Source: Bdellovibrionales bacterium | GTDB taxonomy: Bacteria > Bdellovibrionota > Bdellovibrionia > Bdellovibrionales > UBA1609 | Direction: 5' to 3' | Assembly: GCA_965199825.1 (NCBI GenBank) | Contig: CBDATP010000001.1 | Span: 1-11,999, forward strand | Length of the DNA stretch: 11,999 nt | Part shown: positions 1-11,999 of the stretch, piece after piece | Numbering within the stretch: the first letter of the stretch is position 1 | Layout: each line of letters begins with the position of its first letter | Notes under the pieces: generated by a model | The model's input: only the letters and a program-made list of their open reading frames with translations | Told to the model about the DNA's origin: nothing | Database searches by the model: none | Made by a program: the position numbers and the translations under genes

Positions 1-90
1 GGCGTGATCGAAGAGAGTTATCCGTTTCTCGAGTGCGCGACCGGCTAAACCGCCTGGCCGCTCACCAACAATCAAAATCTGTACACTTCA
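1..90 (+). repeat. 3' end (U5) of an upstream LTR copy, truncated by the window edge
   Basis: Identical to 7519-7608. Ends in ...ACACTTCA, followed by AA and TGGTGGAGGCGCCGG. Confidence 0.93.
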
Positions 91-92
91 AA

Positions 93-107
93 TGGTGGAG
101 GCGCCGG
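93..107 (+). promoter_or_regulatory. Truncated tRNA-Ala primer-binding site (15 nt)
   Basis: TGGTGGAGGCGCCGG lies 2 nt after the LTR end. Identity with the second copy stops at 107/7625. Confidence 0.85.
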
Positions 108-129
108 TCTTTCCTAAAGTCCTTCCCGT

Positions 130-3100
130 TTGCTGATGAGACCGTTTGATAATGACATGGAAATCGCCCACGAAGGATTGAATTTCAAAGGAACAATTGA
201 TTTGGGTGTCCTCAGAGATCAAGGCTATGACCTGTTGATTGGCATGGATTTTATGACCCAAGTCGGCCTCATCATAGTAACACCACTCTCAACATTCATG
301 ATGAGGACCGATCTTGAGGAACTATTTCGCCAAAGTGGCCGATCGGTAGAAGACTTATCACAGAACTCATGGCAAACAAACACTGGTTTATCCACAAATA
401 AGGATACCGAACCTGAAACCCGACATATCAATCATATTTCAATCTCTGAAATTATTGATGACGATTTTGATAGAGAAGTTCGAAAGTGGACATTCCAACC
501 AAATGCAGATATCAAAACAGTCATCCAAGATGTGAGCCCGGTTCCAAATGCTAAAGAAGACGGACTATCGAACGAGAAGGAACCGTTTCCAGAAATAGAG
601 GCTCGGTGTCATACCGAATCTTTGAATTATTTCAAGCCAAGACAAATGAGACGAATTTCAGTGATTACAGATAAGCCGGTTCTCAAAACCTCCCTTGCAT
701 CAATCGATCCGGCTATGGCTGAAAAGAATTGGACGATTACTGAGGTTCTGATCCCGTCCGGAACAGATTCGTTTATTGTGTACGTCCGAAACGACTCACT
801 TAAAGCAAGATATCTGAATAGAAACGTCTCAATAGCTGTATTAGAAGATATCGACGATTCTTTGTGTGTCGAAATTCCTCCCCAAAACGAGAAGCCGAAG
901 AACTCTCGTAAACGGACTAAAAGACCAAAAACGTCTACAACCAATATTGATAAGAATCGGATCAACAACATAAATGAAGAGGTCTGGTCAGAAATAAATT
1001 CGTATCCATCGGCGTCCATGACGTTTTTCACCCAATATGAAAGAGAATTAAAAGAAGATGACCCGTATTTCTCTGATTGTATCGATCAAGAATTTCTAAA
1101 GGACTACGACGTCAGCCCGGATCTGATCCCTCGAGACCGATTGTTGATGCAAAGATATCTTCAGAATAATCGTGACATTTACGTATTCCCGGGTGACCCT
1201 CTAGGACGAGTAACGGTCTGGAAACATAAGATCCCGACTGGCGACCATCCGCCCATCAAACAAAACCCGTACCGTTTCTCGGAAGTTCAAAAAGCGGAAG
1301 TCGAAAAGCAAGTGTCCGAAATGATCAGACTGGGAGTCATAGTCCCAGCGGTCACTGGTTGGTCTTCTCCAGTCACCTTAGCTCCTAAGCGAGACGGGAC
1401 ATGGCGTTTCTGCATCGACTACCGCAGACTTAACGATATAACACGAAAAGACTCGTTTCCAATCCCGCGTCTCGACGAAGCTTTATCTGTTATGCGCGGA
1501 TGCGACCGATTCTCAGTGCAAGATGCACAATCTTGCTTTTGGCAAATCCCGATGCATAGGGATGACCAACCAAAGACAACTTTCACTTGCCATTTAGGAA
1601 CGTTTATGTTCCGAATGATGCCTTTTGGTCTCACAGGAGCACCTGCTAGCTGCGTCCGAGCAATGACCCGGATTTTCCATAACCTCGAAAGACGGATCGG
1701 ATTCATTTATATGGATGATCTAATATGTTTCTCCAAAGGCGTCGACGAACACATTCGAAGGTTAACAATTTTAGCAGAACGTTGCCGTAAATATGGCCTC
1801 AAGATGCGGGCGGACAAGTGCACATTTTGTTACCCAACCGTTTCTTATCTTGGCCATAAGATAAGTGGCGATAGAATCCGGCCCGATCTCGATAGGCACG
1901 CCGCAATACTCAAGAAACCGATACCCACTAATATCAAAGAACTCCAGTCATTTCTTGGCTTCGCGAACTTTTTTAGAACTTTTATCGTCAATTTCGCCCA
2001 TAAGGCTAAACCACTGACACAACTCCTTCGGAAAACAGTCAACTGGCATTGGGAAGCGGAGCAAGAGAAAGCTCACCAAGAACTCATTCAAGATCTGACC
2101 AATCCGCCGGTTTTGGCACACTATAATCCTGAGTCCGAAATAGAAGTAAGAGTGGACGCTTCTGATGAAGGACTGGGATGCGTCTTGGTCCAAGTCGACA
2201 AAGATGGAAAACGGCAACTACTCGCTGCCTATTCCCGCACATACTCGTCATACGAAGAGAACTATGCGATTACTCACAAAGAATGCCTTGGCATATTGTT
2301 CGGTATCCGTCAAGCTCGACCATACATTTTCGGCCGCCACTTCACAGTTGTGACTGACCATTGTGGTTTGTGTTTTTTAATGAAAGCTCGTGACCTAAGT
2401 GGCCGGCTCGCAAGATGGGCTCTGGAATTAGCCGAGTACGATTTTAAGATTTTGTATAACAGCGGTAAAACACACGGAGATGCCGATTTTCTTTCAAGGA
2501 ACATCAAGAAATGTAACATTCTGCATTCAGAGATTCGTTATCATGAAATTCAAAGGAACATGTCATTCGAACTGAGAACAAGACTAGAACCTGTTTCTGA
2601 ACAAATTATGCAGGAATGGAGTCCTCCAAACACAATGTGTAAACAGAAAGAAGACAACATATTGGGACCGATTATGAGAAAGTTATCCGGAGAAATAACG
2701 GTTAGCGAAAGAGAACGACAATCACTTGAAAAACGATATACGATCAAAAACGGACTTTTATTCCAAACATCAAAACAAGGACATAGAGAGGTTGATCGAC
2801 TATATATCCCTCGATCACTCATCAGGAATGTGCTCTATGTACTGCATGACTTGCCAACGGCTGGCCACTTCGGCTTTGCCAAGACTCTTTGGAAGGCAAG
2901 GCAATATTGCTTTTGGCCGTTCATGACCATAGATATTCTCGGTTACGTTAAATCGTGCCACGAATGCCAATTTAGAAAAATGCCCAATTCTAAACCCAAT
3001 GGGCCGCAACTCAAAACAACGCCGCTTTCCGATAACGTCATGAAAACGATTTCCATTGACTTAATCGGCCCACTCACACATACAGATGGCGACAATAGAT

Positions 3101-3993
3101 ATATCCTGACAATAACCGATCAGTTGAGCAAATTCGCCATTGCAGTACCCTTATATGAGACGAAAGACATTGATATTATGGACGCATTAGAACGGCACGT
3201 TTTCTATAGATATGGACCACCCGCCGTCTTACTTAGCGACCAAGGAAGAAATCTCTGTTCAAATAATTGTGAACGTTTTTACGAATCATGGGGAATAACA
3301 CACGTCACAACGACCCCCTACCATCCGTGTTCCAATGGACAATGTGAAAAATTTAATGGAACTTTGGCCGTTCTACTCGCAACTCAAATTAAGGGCGAAG
3401 ATGAAAGATGGGACGTTTTTGTTGACTCTGTCGTTTATTCTTATAATATGACCATATCGGCCAGCACCGGTTATAGCCCATTTTATCTTATGTTCGGCCG
3501 GCAAGTAGACTCACCACATATGATGAAATTAGGATGTCAATCCGCCGAGACAGCTCAAGGATCGGACATAATTCAAGATAGAAAACGAGCACTCGAAAGA
3601 ATGAAAACTGTCCAAGAACGGAACATGGAAACTGCCAATAAGAATCGTTCTCTTACGAATTTCAAAGTCGGAGATCTAGTTCTCCTGTTATCTCATCCCC
3701 TCTTGACACAAAGATCGGCCAAACTACACTATCGTTATTTGGGCCCATTTAAGATTTTGAAGAAATTATCTGAAAATGTGTTTGAAATTCAATGTTTGGA
3801 AGGGCGAAAACAAATCAAGATAATAAACGTCATCAATTTAAAGAAGTTTTATTCAAGAGACGATTTTCGACTTCAGTGCGAACGGGATGGCCCGATTATC
3901 GCACAAATTGATCAAATGTCACGTACACCTCCCTGTGGAGATTCCACCCTAGCTATGTGGCATTTCAACTTATACTATCTAACCATAAACTAA
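130..3993 (+). CDS. pol: Pol polyprotein, 5'-truncated (protease C-terminal half, reverse transcriptase, RNase H, integrase with GPY/F module)
   Basis: Protease C-half DLLIGMDF. RT motifs WRFCIDYRRLN, MPFGL and YMDD (1708-1719). RNase H DAS (2155-2163), KECLGI, TDH, ADFLSR. Integrase HHCC (H 2845, CHEC 2956-2967), SIDL / SDQG / NGQCE, and GPF (3742-3750). No D(T/S)G catalytic motif is visible. There is an in-frame TAA at 115-117 and the first ATG is at 136. Confidence 0.96.
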   Translation: MLMRPFDNDMEIAHEGLNFKGTIDLGVLRDQGYDLLIGMDFMTQVGLIIVTPLSTFMMRTDLEELFRQSGRSVEDLSQNSWQTNTGLSTNKDTEPETRHINHISISEIIDDDFDREVRKWTFQPNADIKTVIQDVSPVPNAKEDGLSNEKEPFPEIEARCHTESLNYFKPRQMRRISVITDKPVLKTSLASIDPAMAEKNWTITEVLIPSGTDSFIVYVRNDSLKARYLNRNVSIAVLEDIDDSLCVEIPPQNEKPKNSRKRTKRPKTSTTNIDKNRINNINEEVWSEINSYPSASMTFFTQYERELKEDDPYFSDCIDQEFLKDYDVSPDLIPRDRLLMQRYLQNNRDIYVFPGDPLGRVTVWKHKIPTGDHPPIKQNPYRFSEVQKAEVEKQVSEMIRLGVIVPAVTGWSSPVTLAPKRDGTWRFCIDYRRLNDITRKDSFPIPRLDEALSVMRGCDRFSVQDAQSCFWQIPMHRDDQPKTTFTCHLGTFMFRMMPFGLTGAPASCVRAMTRIFHNLERRIGFIYMDDLICFSKGVDEHIRRLTILAERCRKYGLKMRADKCTFCYPTVSYLGHKISGDRIRPDLDRHAAILKKPIPTNIKELQSFLGFANFFRTFIVNFAHKAKPLTQLLRKTVNWHWEAEQEKAHQELIQDLTNPPVLAHYNPESEIEVRVDASDEGLGCVLVQVDKDGKRQLLAAYSRTYSSYEENYAITHKECLGILFGIRQARPYIFGRHFTVVTDHCGLCFLMKARDLSGRLARWALELAEYDFKILYNSGKTHGDADFLSRNIKKCNILHSEIRYHEIQRNMSFELRTRLEPVSEQIMQEWSPPNTMCKQKEDNILGPIMRKLSGEITVSERERQSLEKRYTIKNGLLFQTSKQGHREVDRLYIPRSLIRNVLYVLHDLPTAGHFGFAKTLWKARQYCFWPFMTIDILGYVKSCHECQFRKMPNSKPNGPQLKTTPLSDNVMKTISIDLIGPLTHTDGDNRYILTITDQLSKFAIAVPLYETKDIDIMDALERHVFYRYGPPAVLLSDQGRNLCSNNCERFYESWGITHVTTTPYHPCSNGQCEKFNGTLAVLLATQIKGEDERWDVFVDSVVYSYNMTISASTGYSPFYLMFGRQVDSPHMMKLGCQSAETAQGSDIIQDRKRALERMKTVQERNMETANKNRSLTNFKVGDLVLLLSHPLLTQRSAKLHYRYLGPFKILKKLSENVFEIQCLEGRKQIKIINVINLKKFYSRDDFRLQCERDGPIIAQIDQMSRTPPCGDSTLAMWHFNLYYLTIN

Positions 3994-4176
3994 TGTGCAT
4001 GGACACGAGTTTATTAGCACGTCCTTCACCTTTCAATCATTTAATAATTGTTACAACACCAGAAAATTCATTTTAATATTCTCGATCCAAAATATTTCTA
4101 AAGTTACCGTTTTTCGAATTAGATTATTTATTGTGATCACAACAACTGCGATAAACCTATAAACAGAAAAGTCTAG

Positions 4177-4574: not shown

Positions 4575-6587
4575 ATGAGCACAGAAACAATTAAAGCGGA
4601 TGGTGTGCCACATGTCCTTCTAGAGGTCGAAACCGGACCATCCCTTACTGTCACTGTTTCCGAAAATGACCTGAACCGAATTCTGCACTCGAAAGTGACC
4701 TCCGTTTCTGCAAGCGATAAACAAGATCCCATTTCTGAAAGTTTGACGATTAGACACACGGAAGAAGATCTAATCGATTTAGTGAAAGCATACAGAGACA
4801 CGATCCCTAATAGTGTTGAGAAACGGATCGAGAGCGCAGAAAGTGTCAGCCATATTCACCAAAAGATCGGCTCAAGCTATTTCCAAAGGAAACGAGAAGA
4901 TCTCATCCCAATCCGTGCGCTGAAAGATATTCGGGAGAAAATTTTCACGATCGAAAACGGAGACAATATTGCCGGTTCTCAAGAAGTCCAAGGAACGGTG
5001 CCAAATCTGAAAGTTATTTCAAGTAAAAGCGAGAACCATCCAGGCTTATATATAATGCGAGAACAGAAGATCATAGAAGCCCAAAGGCAGATCAACGCTC
5101 TATCAGAATCGCTCAAAAATATCATTGAAGTCCAAAAGGCGACCGTCACCCAATTACAAGAACTAACAGACGAATCTAAAAAAGTCATCCAACAATACGA
5201 TAAAGTCTACTCCGTCGCTGAAACCACATATGGAGAACTCATTGAAGTCATAGTTGCGGTCAAAAGTCACCTGATCAATAAGGAACGTCAACAAGAATCA
5301 GAAACCGGAGACAGTGCTCGAATCTTGGCGGTTTTTAATAAGTTCCTCGATAAAGTTGAAGATCTGAATGTCGCAGAAATCAGAAATACTCTAAATGAGG
5401 ACTTCGGAGAGAAGCGGTCGATTAAGACCAACATCGGAAACGTACAATCGAAAATGCCTGAAGAATCCGAGTCCAATGTGATTAGCCCAAAATCCGACAT
5501 CAGGAAACGGATTAGGACTGATCCAGAACTGAACATCGCAATGATTGAGCTATCGGAAAAAGAGCTGGAAACGATCTTCAGCGACAAAGACCAACAAGAT
5601 GATCTTCTCGGAGGTCCTGATGATGTTAGAAAGAGTCCCAGTAATGACCGAGAAGCTGACCAAAACCGGAATGATGCTGATGACGAATCCGACAAAATGT
5701 CAGAAAAAGAATCAGAAAACGGTCATCAACCTCATCAATCTCCTAAGGCACCATCAGTTAAAGAACCGTCACCTTTTACGTCTGGAAATAAGAAGGATGA
5801 CGATCAAGAAGATGAACCTGAGCTTAACCAAGTCACTCCGGCTGACAACAAGAAGCGGTCCCGAATACGAAATAGAACGAACGAAGAATTCTTCCCAATT
5901 TTCAAGTCAGACGGCAGACAATTAATAAAGAAAATTAATACCTATGGCGAATGGCTCAGGAAAGCCGCAAAGTTAGAGTTCCTTAAAAACCTAGCAGAGG
6001 ACGAATATGGTCAGGCCTTGGCCAAAGAAATGGCAAAGATTGACACAAAAGATAAGAACGCCGTCAAAAAGGTTGAGGAAGGTCTGACCGCTTTAGAAAA
6101 AAGAATGAAGAAGGCGCGGCTTAACTTCACTCAAACCATTCGACGTCTTCACAACCGGTGGGCTCTATTCAATGGATTTAACCCCAAATTCGCCCTAACA
6201 TACCTCCGAATGGAACCACCGTTTAAAAAGACGGACCAAATAAGAAAGGGCTTGAAGAAGAAAGATCGCGATAATGTCATTAAAATAGCCACCGGTAATC
6301 AGTATAAGTCTAACATTAAAAAGATCGAGACAGCGATCAAAGATGGTGAAGGTCAGATACAACCGTTTCCAACAGAAGAAGAAATCGAAAGATTCAGGGA
6401 CGGCCACTTCGATGGAGAACCGTCCGATGACGAAGATGAAGCGAATGAGTCCGAAAATGACGACCCGGCAGACGAAAGTGATGATGAATCGGTCAACGTG
6501 CACTCGAGCGGAAAAGGAAAACGCAAAAGTGGTCAATCTTATGGTCCGTCTCTTAAAGCTCAGAAAAGAGTATCCGATTCCGAGTGA
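4575..6587 (+). CDS. Retrotransposon accessory ORF of unknown function (670 aa), in the env position but not env-like
   Basis: Intact long ORF between pol and the PPT. Coiled-coil-like segment at about aa 160-240, acidic/disordered tracts, and basic clusters KKRSRIR and GKGKRK. No cysteine, signal peptide or transmembrane stretch is visible. Confidence 0.85.
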   Translation: MSTETIKADGVPHVLLEVETGPSLTVTVSENDLNRILHSKVTSVSASDKQDPISESLTIRHTEEDLIDLVKAYRDTIPNSVEKRIESAESVSHIHQKIGSSYFQRKREDLIPIRALKDIREKIFTIENGDNIAGSQEVQGTVPNLKVISSKSENHPGLYIMREQKIIEAQRQINALSESLKNIIEVQKATVTQLQELTDESKKVIQQYDKVYSVAETTYGELIEVIVAVKSHLINKERQQESETGDSARILAVFNKFLDKVEDLNVAEIRNTLNEDFGEKRSIKTNIGNVQSKMPEESESNVISPKSDIRKRIRTDPELNIAMIELSEKELETIFSDKDQQDDLLGGPDDVRKSPSNDREADQNRNDADDESDKMSEKESENGHQPHQSPKAPSVKEPSPFTSGNKKDDDQEDEPELNQVTPADNKKRSRIRNRTNEEFFPIFKSDGRQLIKKINTYGEWLRKAAKLEFLKNLAEDEYGQALAKEMAKIDTKDKNAVKKVEEGLTALEKRMKKARLNFTQTIRRLHNRWALFNGFNPKFALTYLRMEPPFKKTDQIRKGLKKKDRDNVIKIATGNQYKSNIKKIETAIKDGEGQIQPFPTEEEIERFRDGHFDGEPSDDEDEANESENDDPADESDDESVNVHSSGKGKRKSGQSYGPSLKAQKRVSDSE

Positions 6588-6916: not shown

Positions 6917-6926
6917 GAAGGGGGGG
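6917..6926 (+). promoter_or_regulatory. Polypurine tract (plus-strand primer)
   Basis: GAAGGGGGGG lies 4 nt upstream of the LTR start TGAAG and is preceded by a T-run. Confidence 0.85.
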
Positions 6927-6930
6927 CAAT

Positions 6931-7608
6931 TGAAGAAGTAAGAATCGGCCCACTGTCGAGAGAGCTACTGCTACCACAGAAGCTCTCCTCTCTCGACAGT
7001 TTGGCCCGATTCCCGACAGGAGGCGCCACTGCTGAGCAAGCACGTGTTGTGTGTTGCTCCGCCATGCTGTCGGCACTCTGGTGTTTGGGCTCGACTCGAG
7101 CAGTCGACTTCCCGGCTAATGTTCTCTTAATTGTGATTCAGTTCTAGTTCTTTCTTGATTTGTTGACAATAAAGTGATTTATTAATTAAATCAAGTGTGT
7201 TACACTCGGCCACTGGCCGCTTTCAGCGATTAAGAAGACCATCGGAGACAACACAAAGAGAAGAACGCCGAGTGCCCACGACGACCATCAGAGCCGGCAT
7301 CTGATCTGCCGTTAGGGTCAACGACCAGCAGACATCTCCTCCGCGAAAAGCCGTAGCTTCAGGTAAGCCTGACGTTGGAGTGTCTCTTGCCGTTTCCCAG
7401 CATCAGTGGTGGAGGCCCGTTTTCGGGTATTTCTCGAAGAAATCTATAAGTCCTCAAGGAACGGCTTATCAAGATCGTGCTCCGAAACCGGGCATCAAAT
7501 GGTGTAAAGTCGTTCTCTGGCGTGATCGAAGAGAGTTATCCGTTTCTCGAGTGCGCGACCGGCTAAACCGCCTGGCCGCTCACCAACAATCAAAATCTGT
7601 ACACTTCA
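6931..7608 (+). repeat. Complete long terminal repeat, 678 bp
   Basis: TG...CA ends with a 5-bp terminal inverted repeat TGAAG/CTTCA. Flanked by the PPT upstream and the PBS downstream. The last 90 bp are repeated at 1-90. Confidence 0.92.
7138..7190 (+). promoter_or_regulatory. Putative R region: initiator and polyadenylation signal
   Basis: TCAGTT (7138-7143, arthropod-type Inr), AATAAA (7168-7173) and ATTAAA (7185-7190), followed by a GT-rich stretch. Confidence 0.55.
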
Positions 7609-7610
7609 AA

Positions 7611-7666
7611 TGGTGGAGGCGCCGGGTATCGATCCCGGTACCTCTCGCATTTATCAGCGAGCTCTT
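7611..7666 (+). promoter_or_regulatory. Extended primer-binding site complementary to the 3' part of tRNA-Ala including CCA
   Basis: The reverse complement reads AAGAG-CTCGC-TGATAAAT-GCGAG-AGGTA-CCGGG-ATCGATA-CCCGG-CGCCTCC-A-CCA. This corresponds to the anticodon arm, variable loop, T-arm and acceptor strand of a eukaryotic tRNA-Ala, matched to a consensus recalled from memory. Confidence 0.88.
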
Positions 7667-7731
7667 TCCAGGAGACGCAGCAGAAACTCGAAGAGACCAT
7701 AGAATTTAAGCGAAGCCAAAACGAATCGACC

Positions 7732-7926
7732 ATGAGATACGAAGATACCCTTGAGAAAATCATTGAAATGTTCAACGCTTTTTACGCTCGGGCTAAAGCA
7801 CACATAACTGAAATGAGTCGACAGTTGGATGAAGAGGTCGATGCATTAAATGCTAGCGACGAAGACCTCGACGATTTACTTCGGGGAATTCGACGAAGAA
7901 ATGAAAACCAAAACGCGACCGCCTGA
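7732..7926 (+). CDS. Small 64-aa helical ORF upstream of and overlapping gag
   Basis: First ATG after the PBS (ACCATGA context). Amphipathic helical pattern LEKIIEMFNAFYARAKAHITEMSRQLDEEV, then an acidic and a basic tail. Confidence 0.4.
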   Translation: MRYEDTLEKIIEMFNAFYARAKAHITEMSRQLDEEVDALNASDEDLDDLLRGIRRRNENQNATA

Positions 7927-9973
7927 GAGGAAAAATGCCGTCCCTCAAACTCCCAAAGAAACGGCACCACCTGAACAGACTCGTCAAATGCCGAAACCGA
8001 TTGTCAGTAAGGCTCAAATGGATGAATATTTTCAACGTAAACGACTGATAAGAGAAGAGCGAGAAAATAAGCACTTATTAGAACTGCAGGAAATGTCTAA
8101 AAAGATCAATGAACGTACAGCTCAGATACTAAGTCTACCGATCCGAGACCCTGCAGCTTTTAACGCCCGGTCGGCCTTTCCAAAAGTAACTCCGCCGCCC
8201 GTAGCCGGTTTTCAAATCCTTGATCACACTCCGAAGAGCCCCGAAAAACAGATTCAGAATCAGGAATCGGTTGGAGAGTCGACCACACTCCCGGTTTCTG
8301 AACAGATAATGAATCGAAAAACGACGAAAATTAAGAGTGTAGAGCGAGAAGATTTCGATCAAAGAATAAAGCAAAGACATATCGAAAAATGGAATTACCA
8401 TGTTCAAGGAATCAAAGCGCGGTTTGAGAGAGCTCAAGAAGTGGTCGCAAACCATCTTTTGAACATTGTTAAAAGTCCTATTTCTGTTGGACTAGAAACG
8501 GCGCATAAGAAATCTGCGTCCGTTTCTGAACAAGAACTGTTGGTGAACTGCCATTATAGGGCATCAATCCTTATCAAGATCATTGGAGAGAAGAATGACC
8601 GATGCAATATCCTGAGTAAAGCTATAAACGGCTTCCAGTTATCGGATGATTTTGATCCGGACGATGTCGAATTTCAAGATAATATTCGAGAATATTCAAA
8701 CCTTACGGATGAAATTATAAAGATGAGTCAAGAATTTGAAGCCATTCGTATACAACTCGAGGAAATTACCAATTATGCGGAAAGAGATCTGAAGGAACTG
8801 AAAGAACAAGTGAAAAGTTCAGTACGCATTAAACTGAAAACGGCTGCCGAAGAAAGATCTCCGAAGAATACTAGAGAACCCAAGGGTGACCGAATTTCAA
8901 AAAGAAAAGTTCAAGAGGTGGTCAAGAATAAAGGATCAGGAGTTGACTCGAATGGTCGGAACAGAAGACGTCCGATTCTAACGGATAGAGAGACCGTCTC
9001 CGGATTAGTTGGCCAGACACCGATTGAAACTGAAAAGAAAACCGAATCCGGAACGTCCGAACGAATCCTTTTATTAGAAAAGGAATTGGCGCAAGTTGTC
9101 TCACGCCTGACCGATATGAGCGATAAGAGCAGAAGTAATAATTCTTCATCAGACTCGGATAGGGATAAGAGCCCCAAAAAGGGAAAACATAAAAGTGACA
9201 AACGGCAGGACAATTCAATGATAACTAAAGATCAGAGCCAAAATATCGAGAAGAGAGGACGACGACCCAAAGAGGAAGGGTCCCGTTTCTCTAGATCAGG
9301 AAAAGACACCGTTTCTAGTAAAGTTGACAAATCCCAAAAAACGTCACCCAAGAAAACATCCGGACAAAAACGAAGTTCAGGTAGTCTTAAGACGCCGACC
9401 GAAGAGAAAAGCATCGGCAGTAAGAACGCTAGAAATTCGTCTGAAGACGAAGATGATCCCTCTGATGACGACCCAAGCGACGATGATGGACAAAGTGACA
9501 CAGTTCAAAAGAAGTCGAAAAAGCCTACGCATGAAAAACGGCCCGATATTCATACCTTCGAGGGTGGAGATGCGGGCGAAGCCACATTTTGGTTAAGGGC
9601 GTTTATCAATGCCACAGACACAATGAATTGGTCGAAAATAGATAAAGCAAAGAACTTTTCGACATACTTAACCGGATCAGCCCGGAAGTGGTTCACTAAT
9701 GAATTCGGTCTGAATCGGAAGCAATCACTCGAAGAATTTCTCGACCCGAAGCCGATCAAATGGAAGAAAATCCTGACCGCTTTCTATCAACATTATCTTA
9801 GTGATGCCTCCTGTGCCCACTTCATTGACGACTTCAACAATTTTACACCGAAGTCCGATGAGAAATGGACGGATATGTGCCAACGCTATTGGAGCCAAGA
9901 GCTCGCTGATAAATGCGAGAGGTACCGGGATCGATACCCGGCGCCTCCACCATTTGAAGTGTACAGATTTTGA
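7850..9973 (+). CDS. gag: Gag polyprotein with long N-terminal extension; authentic sequence ends at about 9896 and the remainder is read from an inverted PBS/U5 copy
   Basis: Located after the LTR and PBS. Ty3/Gypsy capsid-like pattern TFEGGDAGEATFWLRAF...NW...YLTGSARKWF...WKKILTAFYQHY at about 9550-9795. No CCHC knuckle is reached. The true start may be the ATG at 7901. Confidence 0.85.
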   Translation: MLATKTSTIYFGEFDEEMKTKTRPPERKNAVPQTPKETAPPEQTRQMPKPIVSKAQMDEYFQRKRLIREERENKHLLELQEMSKKINERTAQILSLPIRDPAAFNARSAFPKVTPPPVAGFQILDHTPKSPEKQIQNQESVGESTTLPVSEQIMNRKTTKIKSVEREDFDQRIKQRHIEKWNYHVQGIKARFERAQEVVANHLLNIVKSPISVGLETAHKKSASVSEQELLVNCHYRASILIKIIGEKNDRCNILSKAINGFQLSDDFDPDDVEFQDNIREYSNLTDEIIKMSQEFEAIRIQLEEITNYAERDLKELKEQVKSSVRIKLKTAAEERSPKNTREPKGDRISKRKVQEVVKNKGSGVDSNGRNRRRPILTDRETVSGLVGQTPIETEKKTESGTSERILLLEKELAQVVSRLTDMSDKSRSNNSSSDSDRDKSPKKGKHKSDKRQDNSMITKDQSQNIEKRGRRPKEEGSRFSRSGKDTVSSKVDKSQKTSPKKTSGQKRSSGSLKTPTEEKSIGSKNARNSSEDEDDPSDDDPSDDDGQSDTVQKKSKKPTHEKRPDIHTFEGGDAGEATFWLRAFINATDTMNWSKIDKAKNFSTYLTGSARKWFTNEFGLNRKQSLEEFLDPKPIKWKKILTAFYQHYLSDASCAHFIDDFNNFTPKSDEKWTDMCQRYWSQELADKCERYRDRYPAPPPFEVYRF
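9897..9952 (+). pseudogene. tRNA-Ala-like 3' fragment with encoded CCA (inverted PBS, not a functional tRNA gene)
   Basis: T-arm CCGGG/CCCGG with loop ATCGATA, anticodon stem CTCGC/GCGAG, ending CCTCCACCA. It lacks the 5' acceptor strand and a full D-arm, and has an 8-nt loop. Confidence 0.7.
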
Positions 9974-10001
9974 TTGTTGGTGAGCGGCCAGGCGGTTTAG
10001 C
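9897..10001 (-). repeat. Inverted 105-bp copy of the LTR end plus extended PBS
   Basis: Exact reverse complement of 7562-7666. Confidence 0.95.
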
Positions 10002-11622
10002 TGAGCTACCGGAAGAATTCTAGAAAGAATAAAAATCTGAAATAATTATCATAGACACTCCTCGTGATTCTCTATCGAATGAGCTTTATGAAATTTCGAT
10101 TAAAAAATTCCTTCTATTTATTATGAATTATCAAAGTTTTGGTAAGGAATTAACTTTAATTTATATAAAATACTTAGAATTTTTCAATGACAACAATGAT
10201 GGTACTGTTGAGTACAACTTTGTCAATGGTTTCAACAATGAGTATCAAAAGATTTTCGCTGATCATTATTAAGCCACAATTAGACATTAAGTTACTCTCG
10301 CATGACCACTTGAAAAGTTTTTGAGCTACCGGAAGAATTCTAGAAAGAATAAAAATCTGAAATAATTATCATAGACACTCCTCGTGATTCTCTATCGAAT
10401 GAGCTTTATGAAATTTCGATTAAAAAATTCCTTCTATTTATTATGAATTATCAAAGTTTTGGTAAGGAATTAACTTTAATTTATATAAAATACTTAGAAT
10501 TTTTCAATGACAACAATGATGGTACTGTTGAGTACAACTTTGTCAATGGTTTCAACAATGAGTATCAAAAGATTTTCGCTGATCATTATTAAGCCACAAT
10601 TAGACATTAAGTTACTCTCGCATGACCACTTGAAAAGTTTTTGAGCTACCGGAAGAATTCTAGAAAGAATAAAAATCTGAAATAATTATCATAGACACTC
10701 CTCGTGATTCTCTATCGAATGAGCTTTATGAAATTTCGATTAAAAAATTCCTTCTATTTATTATGAATTATCAAAGTTTTGGTAAGGAATTAACTTTAAT
10801 TTATATAAAATACTTAGAATTTTTCAATGACAACAATGATGGTACTGTTGAGTACAACTTTGTCAATGGTTTCAACAATGAGTATCAAAAGATTTTCGCT
10901 GATCATTATTAAGCCACAATTAGACATTAAGTTACTCTCGCATGACCACTTGAAAATTTTTTGAGCTACCGGAAGAATTCTAGAAAGAATAAAAATCTGA
11001 AATAATTATCATAGACACTCCTCGTGATTCTCTATCGAATGAGCTTTATGAAATTTCGATTAAAAAATTCCTTCTATTTATTATGAATTATCAAAGTTTT
11101 GGTAAGGAATTAACTTTAATTTATATAAAATACTTAGAATTTTTCAATGACAACAATGATGGTACTGTTGAGTACAACTTTGTCAATGGTTTCAACAATG
11201 AGTATCAAAAGATTTTCGCTGATCATTATTAAGCCACAATTAGACATTAAGTTACTCTCGCATGACCACTTGAAAAGTTTTTGAGCTACCGGAAGAATTC
11301 TAGAAAGAATAAAAATCTGAAATAATTATCATAGACACTCCTCGTGATTCTCTATCGAATGAGCTTTATGAAATTTCGATTAAAAAATTCCTTCTATTTA
11401 TTATGAATTATCAAAGTTTTGGTAAGGAATTAACTTTAATTTATATAAAATACTTAGAATTTTTCAATGACAACAATGATGGTACTGTTGAGTACAACTT
11501 TGTCAATGGTTTCAACAATGAGTATCAAAAGATTTTTCCTGCTCATCGTTGACCCACACTTAGACTATTAGTTACTTTCGAAAAAGTTTTTGAGCTACCG
11601 GAAGAATTCTAGAAAGAATAAA
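10002..11622. repeat. AT-rich tandem repeat (satellite-like), 320-bp monomer, about 5.1 copies
   Basis: Units start TGAGCTACCGGAAGAATTC at 10002, 10322, 10642, 10962, 11282 and 11591. The first four are near-identical (one G>T seen at 10957). The fifth diverges after about 11536 and is 309 bp. The sixth is partial. Confidence 0.97.
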
Positions 11623-11999
11623 TAATATCAATATAATTTAGGATTAACTTTGGGAAGGAAATGAAATTTTTCCAGGTAAGGAATTTAAGGTATTGTGTAA
11701 AACTGCAATTTTAATAATTTTTATTGTTACATTTTTCCCTTTAATTGGAGGGAGATGGATTTTTCAATCACTTTGTTCTCTGCCTGAAGTATAAAGTAAA
11801 TATTCCAAATAAAAAATGTTAATACTGTGATAGATTCATGGGCAAGAAGTACAGTTATGACTTTATTAGAAACAACTTGTCAATAGAGGGCTCTGACTAC
11901 GCGCAAAGTTCGATAACCGGATAACTTTGCCTCGCTTATTTCTCAGTGTTTTGTGTTTGTATATGCTGGGGATAACTAAGGGAGTTCGGCAAATACCGA

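Follow-up and report, generated by a model that had tools for sequence, protein, structure and literature searches.

The stretch of DNA analysed here, hereafter the window, is a whole 11,999-nt contig (C2) of an assembly made up of a bacterial chromosome, the 2.78-Mb main contig, and four small contigs. Because it carries a Ty3/gypsy pol gene and a 320-bp satellite, its content is eukaryotic, and the window is a contaminant of the bacterial assembly. The host of the element is probably a small arthropod; we infer this from Arthropoda being the commonest group in the top Atlas cluster and from lichen metagenomes being among the samples that hold the stretch. The features of the window are as follows.

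1 to 90, forward strand: U5, the 3′ end of an LTR truncated by the contig start (1–107 are identical to 7519–7625)
93 to 107, forward: short PBS, 15 nt complementary to the 3′ end of tRNA-Ala (12 gene nt plus CCA)
108 to 150, forward: remnant of the normal leader, after which an extensive internal deletion brings in the protease region
151 to 3993, forward: Ty3/gypsy-type pol with the protease end, RT, RNase H and integrase (Pfam RVT_1, RT_RNaseH, Integrase_H2C2, rve)
4575 to 6587, forward: extra 670-aa ORF between pol and the polypurine tract, with no Pfam family and no usable Atlas match
6917 to 6930, forward: polypurine tract (PPT) abutting the LTR
6931 to 7608, forward: 678-nt LTR bounded by TGAAG...CTTCA, AATAAA at 7168, the 3′ LTR of the upstream unit
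7611 to 7628, forward: canonical 18-nt portion of a PBS, tRNA-Ala positions 76 to 59
7629 to 7650, forward: 22-nt overshoot, exact antisense of tRNA-Ala positions 58 to 37
7651 to 7666, forward: 16-nt joint tail, like tRNA positions 21–36 and like the antisense of gag codons at the second joint
7666 to 9896, forward: internal gag fragment, residues 106–916 of protein P0005 (tblastn), start and end absent, with a frame break near 7880
9897 to 10001, reverse: exact inverted copy of 7562–7666 (tail, 40-nt tRNA copy and 49 nt of U5)
10002 to 11638, no strand: 320-bp host satellite, 5.1 copies, abutting the inverted arm

The order of domains in pol, with RT and RNase H followed by integrase (Pfam), is that of Ty3/gypsy elements, as are the TG...CA ends of the LTR, the PPT before it and the PBS after it. 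The closest pol relatives share 68–79% identity. Pol homology begins at 151 with residue 1213 of P0005, the upstream unit skipping at 150/151 from leader to protease region. With a PPT before it, the LTR at 6931–7608 can equally be counted as the 3′ LTR of the upstream unit or as the 5′ LTR of the downstream sequence; a contig of a public run (X4, below) departs from the window behind 7608. An intact gag-pol, two full LTRs and a target-site duplication were not found: there is the internal deletion, a fragment of gag and no right LTR terminus, and the target-site duplication is unreadable where the contig start cuts the left end of the element. This Ty3/gypsy copy is thus rearranged and dead. 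The 670-aa ORF lies on the sense strand, contains acidic stretches, and is a putative accessory gene outside the Pfam families.

Behind the LTR, 7611–7650 is the exact antisense of positions 37–76 of animal tRNA-Ala(AGC), 40 nt with no mismatch, in agreement with the preliminary description of this DNA. The first three letters (7611–7613) are the complement of CCA, and the reverse complement of 7614–7650 equals the last 37 nt of a tRNA-Ala(AGC) gene that ARAGORN places at 2965–3037 of locus L004 (JBCAZI010000172.1). L004 was the sole locus recovered when the genome collection was scanned with a 36-nt piece of the window; it belongs to another record, and its tRNA gene is a stand-in that may differ from the host's own. 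A near-identical tRNA-like sequence lies in a Drosophila construct printed in PMC9020824, which points to a conserved animal tRNA. By eye, the two tRNA-Ala genes of the assembly's bacterial chromosome differ from the match. The antisense of the primer tRNA continues in register with the PBS past position 58, and the chance probability of 22 nt matching beyond an 18-nt PBS is about 3e-13. At copied positions 58 and 37 alike the letter is the gene's A. Within the window, tRNA matches occur only at 96–107, 7614–7650 and 9913–9949. The inclusion of CCA, earlier adduced for copying of the mature primer, holds as an observation; it is not independent proof of such copying, as the short PBS at 93–107 also begins with the CCA complement.

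An inserted tRNA gene or tRNA-derived SINE, which the preliminary description had set against its own reading as a possible one-off insertion, was rejected. ARAGORN reports 0 tRNA genes and there is no complete tRNA fold; a SINE body and tail are missing, and gag begins directly behind the joint tail, behind 7666.

Homology to gag (tblastn against P0005) spans 7666 to 9895, with limits exactly at the arms of a repeat. The two arms, 7562–7666 and 9897–10001, are inverted, 105 nt long and 100% complementary, and with this 105-nt inverted copy at 9897 the tRNA copy and its tail are joined to both ends of the gag fragment. At the long copy the leader and about 105 gag codons have been replaced. 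An ATG overlapping the PBS was considered as the gag start and discarded, since the relative's gag extends ~105 residues further upstream than the gag of the window. The inverted second copy at 9897–10001, the short-PBS LTR end at 1–107 and the loss of the leader and gag start had all been missed earlier. The gag fragment behind the 3′ LTR falls wholly within the part deleted at 150/151, and no internal sequence is duplicated, an arrangement that would fit an origin from one particle. The adjoining satellite reaches depths of 1,490–72,022 across four runs; in 4/4 runs its summed contig depth exceeds that of the gag fragment by a factor of several hundred to several thousand, making it a good host marker.

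Evidence at the level of copies comes from the window itself and from the contigs of four public runs. Part of the stretch was contained in 9 of 24 runs, and four of those nine (X1–X4) were aligned to the window; X3 comes from another study and X1 is possibly the source sample. Gaps in contig cover (for example X1 at 7728–7833) were excluded as evidence, and the comparison rests on the contigs, pieces and loose ends listed, which exclude 45 loose ends and 266 pieces. One X2 contig follows the window up to exactly PBS position 18 and parts from it there; its next 30 letters agree with window positions 111–140 at 21/30 (ungapped, in register, aligned by eye; binomial 2e-6), which identifies it as a copy with a normal leader and the canonical stop before tRNA position 58. 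An X4 contig departs at PBS position 20. Summed contig depth drops from the bin 7516–7621 to the bin 7622–7727 in three runs, X1, X2 and X4 (33.4 to 6.6, 224.7 to 26.8 and 11.2 to 0.93). X3 shows no drop across the PBS boundary (3.05 to 3.7), and its sole LTR-PBS contig among those listed is the long form. A PBS or primer duplex extended throughout the family, as envisaged in the preliminary description, does not agree with other copies that carry 15 or 18 nt and a normal leader. Nor do all members have the extension: the window holds a 15-nt copy, and ends of 18 and 20 nt appear in X2 and X4 among the contigs listed.

The long form is itself represented in the runs. Contigs of X3 cover 7319–7666 (2 differences), 7637–7836 (0) and 9749–9926 (0). 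At the joints these contigs have 30 letters on the short side, one fewer than the 31 that the alignment tool demands; 30 is the number that a 31-letter graph should leave when a repeat makes it fork. A contig of X1 (7867–9950) spans the second joint with 54 letters, and the gag contig of X2 stops exactly at 9896, suggesting a fork there. The junctions confirmed in the runs are thus both gag joints and the stretch from LTR to tail, and do not include 150/151 or 10001/10002. The long form is real and inherited, and present in more than one sample; X2 or X4 may hold more copies of it.

Searches elsewhere bore on how widely the long form occurs. The assembly's own contigs gave three matches, all inside the window. 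Viral contigs yielded 0 exact matches to a 28-nt long-PBS pattern and, by pol alignment, 0 confirmed relatives among 48 candidate stretches; metagenome contigs yielded 0 exact matches to a 32-nt long-PBS pattern and 0 to a gag-end pattern. A 19-nt LTR-PBS pattern hit 3 viral loci, which represent one GC-rich phage stretch without a tRNA and were rejected as chance.

Between the 40-nt copy and gag lies the 16-nt tail. The preliminary description had similarity to the tRNA resuming after an altered loop, as if RT had stumbled at the modified anticodon loop. Similarity does resume, weakly: against tRNA positions 21–36 the tail shows a 7-nt run in near register, attained by 22 of 19,578 control 16-mers, while its gapped score is attained by 248/19,578 or 82/6,527 controls. 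The tail fits conserved gag residues equally, with a three-residue run attained by 23/19,578 controls and a gapped score attained by 111–114 of 6,527. Past the break, the gag proteins of two relatives read L-A-E-L-A-Y-P-E-M where the window has Q-E-L-A-D; the gag side of the microhomology rests on these two proteins. Positions 37–39 of the tRNA are ATG, as is the conserved gag Met codon. The loop letters, as 8-mers and longer, occur in the window only within the two arms and were not copied from elsewhere in it.

The tail may contain RT errors at modified bases or may come from gag, and because it fits tRNA and gag equally it does not count as evidence of stumbling at the loop. On the simplest reading, the join was made at a point where gag is similar to the anticodon arm of the tRNA. 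Because position 37 reads A where copied I37 should give G, the copy may be 39 nt long with its final letter taken from gag. Neither joint is a clean microhomology join. A Fisher test on the clustering of differences was left unused, its p being 0.08 or 0.0002 by the way of counting events.

What, then, produced the 40 nt? During retroviral plus-strand synthesis the usual stop is at m1A58 (PMC13191261, PMC8599865). Human AlaAGC carries m1A58, m1I37, I34 and m22G26, and its m1I37 is reported mostly to stop RT (PMC5066629), although m1I37 is also listed among the RT-readable sites (PMC11770116). HIV-1 yields a minor strong-stop product that ends at modified position 37 and is unusable in strand transfer (PMC13191261), and overshoot past position 54 leads to DNA unable to integrate (PMC8599865). 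The copy in the window ends at 37/38, which we compared with the m1I37 of human AlaAGC, a human map that may not be the host's. An exact copy ending at this point is consistent with reverse transcription of an under-methylated primer as far as the anticodon loop.

We consider it fairly likely that a single defective reverse-transcription cycle of a Ty3/gypsy element, primed by tRNA-Ala(AGC), left the 40 nt behind as a fixed scar. Plus-strand synthesis would have continued beyond position 58 of the primer, which was still attached and probably lacked m1A58, and would then have stalled at the modified anticodon loop (m1I37). The over-long 3′ end, unable to pair at the PBS, may have gone into gag, landing at conserved codons (E-L-A...M) that resemble the tRNA anticodon arm, with the ATG of positions 37–39 on the Met codon. 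Folding back could have created the 105-nt inverted repeat. Lacking a proper right LTR end, the product would have been linked to satellite DNA through the host's repair machinery, and inherited in that form. The first of these steps, read-through past 58, is strongly indicated by the letters themselves; the later ones and their order are inferred, and landing in gag and fold-back may have come either way round. The scar is probably that of a single event, and the locus looks like an inherited accident, not a new mode of replication. Counting against this reading are the A, not G, at position 37, the imprecise joints and a modification map taken from human tRNA. Any signature of an RNA template (I34 read as G, errors at m22G26) would fall in the tail, which suits tRNA and gag alike, and the identical 40 nt could equally result from a DNA template or from a 3′ half of the tRNA.

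Read-through of position 58, as first proposed, with an end at the anticodon loop stands as the best explanation, and priming by a tRNA half, proposed alongside it, is still a live rival and the main one, though we think it unlikely. On this view tRNA-Ala was cleaved within the anticodon loop and its 3′ half served as the primer; RT would have reached the 5′ end of that half at 37 and jumped to gag, so that the stop is the physical end of the template and not a modified base. An exact match that ends inside the anticodon loop, reads the gene's A at 37 and has zero errors in 40 nt is what such a half would give. A free end of the template favours a template jump by RT, and the half would supply one. 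Passage of position 58 would still be required, however, and the tRNA-half priming known from PMC10886601 uses the anticodon-loop ends of 5′ fragments, not 3′ halves.

Somewhat less probable again is repair of DNA, in which strand invasion of a tRNA-Ala gene from a break at the PBS, over 12–15 nt of homology, led to the copying of 22 nt, templated repair also making the inverted repeat. This would account for 37 nt that equal the gene letter for letter, including A at 58 and 37, in a locus that is heavily rearranged and adjoins satellite, but a DNA template gives no reason for copying to end at the anticodon loop, which is where RT stops.

We regard it as improbable, though by a little more than for repair, that the long form, instead of being one dead locus, is a spreading derivative: a unit between two inward-facing arms of U5 plus 40 nt of tRNA, primed by tRNA-Ala 3′ halves via a 40-bp duplex. 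Over-extended strong-stop DNA would then land recurrently on a tRNA-like patch among the conserved gag codons, and nature would have an element in which read-through of position 58 is tolerated or exploited.

It is very unlikely that the site, at 40–56 nt, is functional in the family or in an amplified subfamily, serving as an extended primer duplex or a tRNA-fragment target. The long form does occur in runs of two studies, and the sole X3 LTR-PBS contig listed is only 2 letters from the window; yet a short PBS with a normal leader is found in the window, X2 and X4, depth drops in 3/4 runs, the long form lacks the gag start, and neither the 28-nt (viral) nor the 32-nt (metagenome) pattern had an exact match. 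A chimeric read or amplification artefact, which an isolated eukaryotic contig of 12 kb among bacterial sequence and a perfect inverted repeat of the kind seen in fold-back chimeras might have suggested, is largely refuted and scarcely credible, given both joints and the LTR-to-tail stretch in X3, from the other study, and the second joint in X1.

The preliminary description had also stated that the copy keeps both hairpins and could act as a tRNA mimic. Both hairpins indeed fold (z −2.3 and −3.3), as follows from the tRNA's own stems. Mimicry finds no support: in the element's transcript the stretch is antisense and lacks the 5′ acceptor strand, ARAGORN calls no tRNA there, and Rfam gives no match to a tRNA family. 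Four Rfam matches to tmRNA (16.7–21 bits against cut-offs of 47–50) were set aside as sub-threshold; they stem from the T-arm and CCA. The extension shows no sign of expression or selection, and any function is putative.

Returning to the reading as a reverse-transcription scar, its closest counterpart is the over-extended strong-stop DNA of HIV-1, with which it would share a primer copied past 58, an end at position 37, modified in HIV-1's primer and presumably here, and a product unpairable at the PBS (PMC13191261, PMC8599865). According to the same reports, over-extended HIV-1 products end at Psi55, m5U54, ms2t6A37 or the tRNA 5′ end. Unlike that transient in vitro product, the present one involves a Ty3/gypsy element and tRNA-Ala(AGC) and is fixed in a genome together with a deletion, a fold-back and a joint to satellite. 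With other Ty3/gypsy elements (Metaviridae) the window shares the PR-RT-RH-IN order, the PPT, the TG...CA LTR and a 15–18-nt PBS two bases behind the LTR, whereas this copy is rearranged and dead and has an unclassified 670-aa ORF between pol and PPT. Abortive LTR cDNAs of Arabidopsis likewise have LTR ends fused to truncated or inverted internal pieces, and are ascribed to auto-integration by integrase at LTR ends (PMC7197481); here, in contrast, the joints coincide with the end of the tRNA copy and are 58 nt away from the LTR end. Helenus and TRIMp3 also combine tRNA-derived sequence with an LTR element, and in Helenus the tRNA-like part is reported within both LTRs and family-wide (PMC10886601). 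In the window the tRNA copy is instead outside the LTR, antisense, in register with the PBS and absent from other copies among those listed. Membership of Helenus or TRIMp3 was rejected, the mapped tRNA matches of the window including none inside the LTR.

The mechanism is thus already known in vitro. A literature search at the level of titles and abstracts, with few subscription papers and no supplements, found no described germline fossil of primer overshoot. If the proposed reading is true, the locus would be a germline record that the HIV-type minor strong-stop product, reaching to the anticodon loop, arises in vivo in an animal LTR retrotransposon. The overshoot product would then be mutagenic and not merely abortive, driving deletion and inversion in heritable form. 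Scars of this kind collected genome-wide could report the methylation of position 58 of the primer tRNA in the germ line, as well as RT stop sites. One locus alone changes little, and a long PBS in one copy should not be taken for a family trait.

Some further observations concern sequences around the locus. Related LTR families are visible in X1, X2 and X4, with loose ends at 6936 and 9972; those behind 6936 come from X1 and X2. They differ inside the LTR, and what they share is either the PPT and the first LTR bases or the last ~18 nt of U5 and the PBS. In L004, which is assigned to a bacterial MAG, positions 1–4145 carry 22 tRNA genes of eukaryotic type, packed into 4.1 kb and read from either strand; this contig is probably an animal tRNA cluster carried as contamination. 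Scanning of contigs C3–C5 of the window's own assembly gave no tRNA-like and no pol match. These contigs, too, look like contaminants: by eye, C3 is a tandem repeat of ~3.4 kb, and a frame of 2,370 codons and a helicase-like motif are visible in C5.
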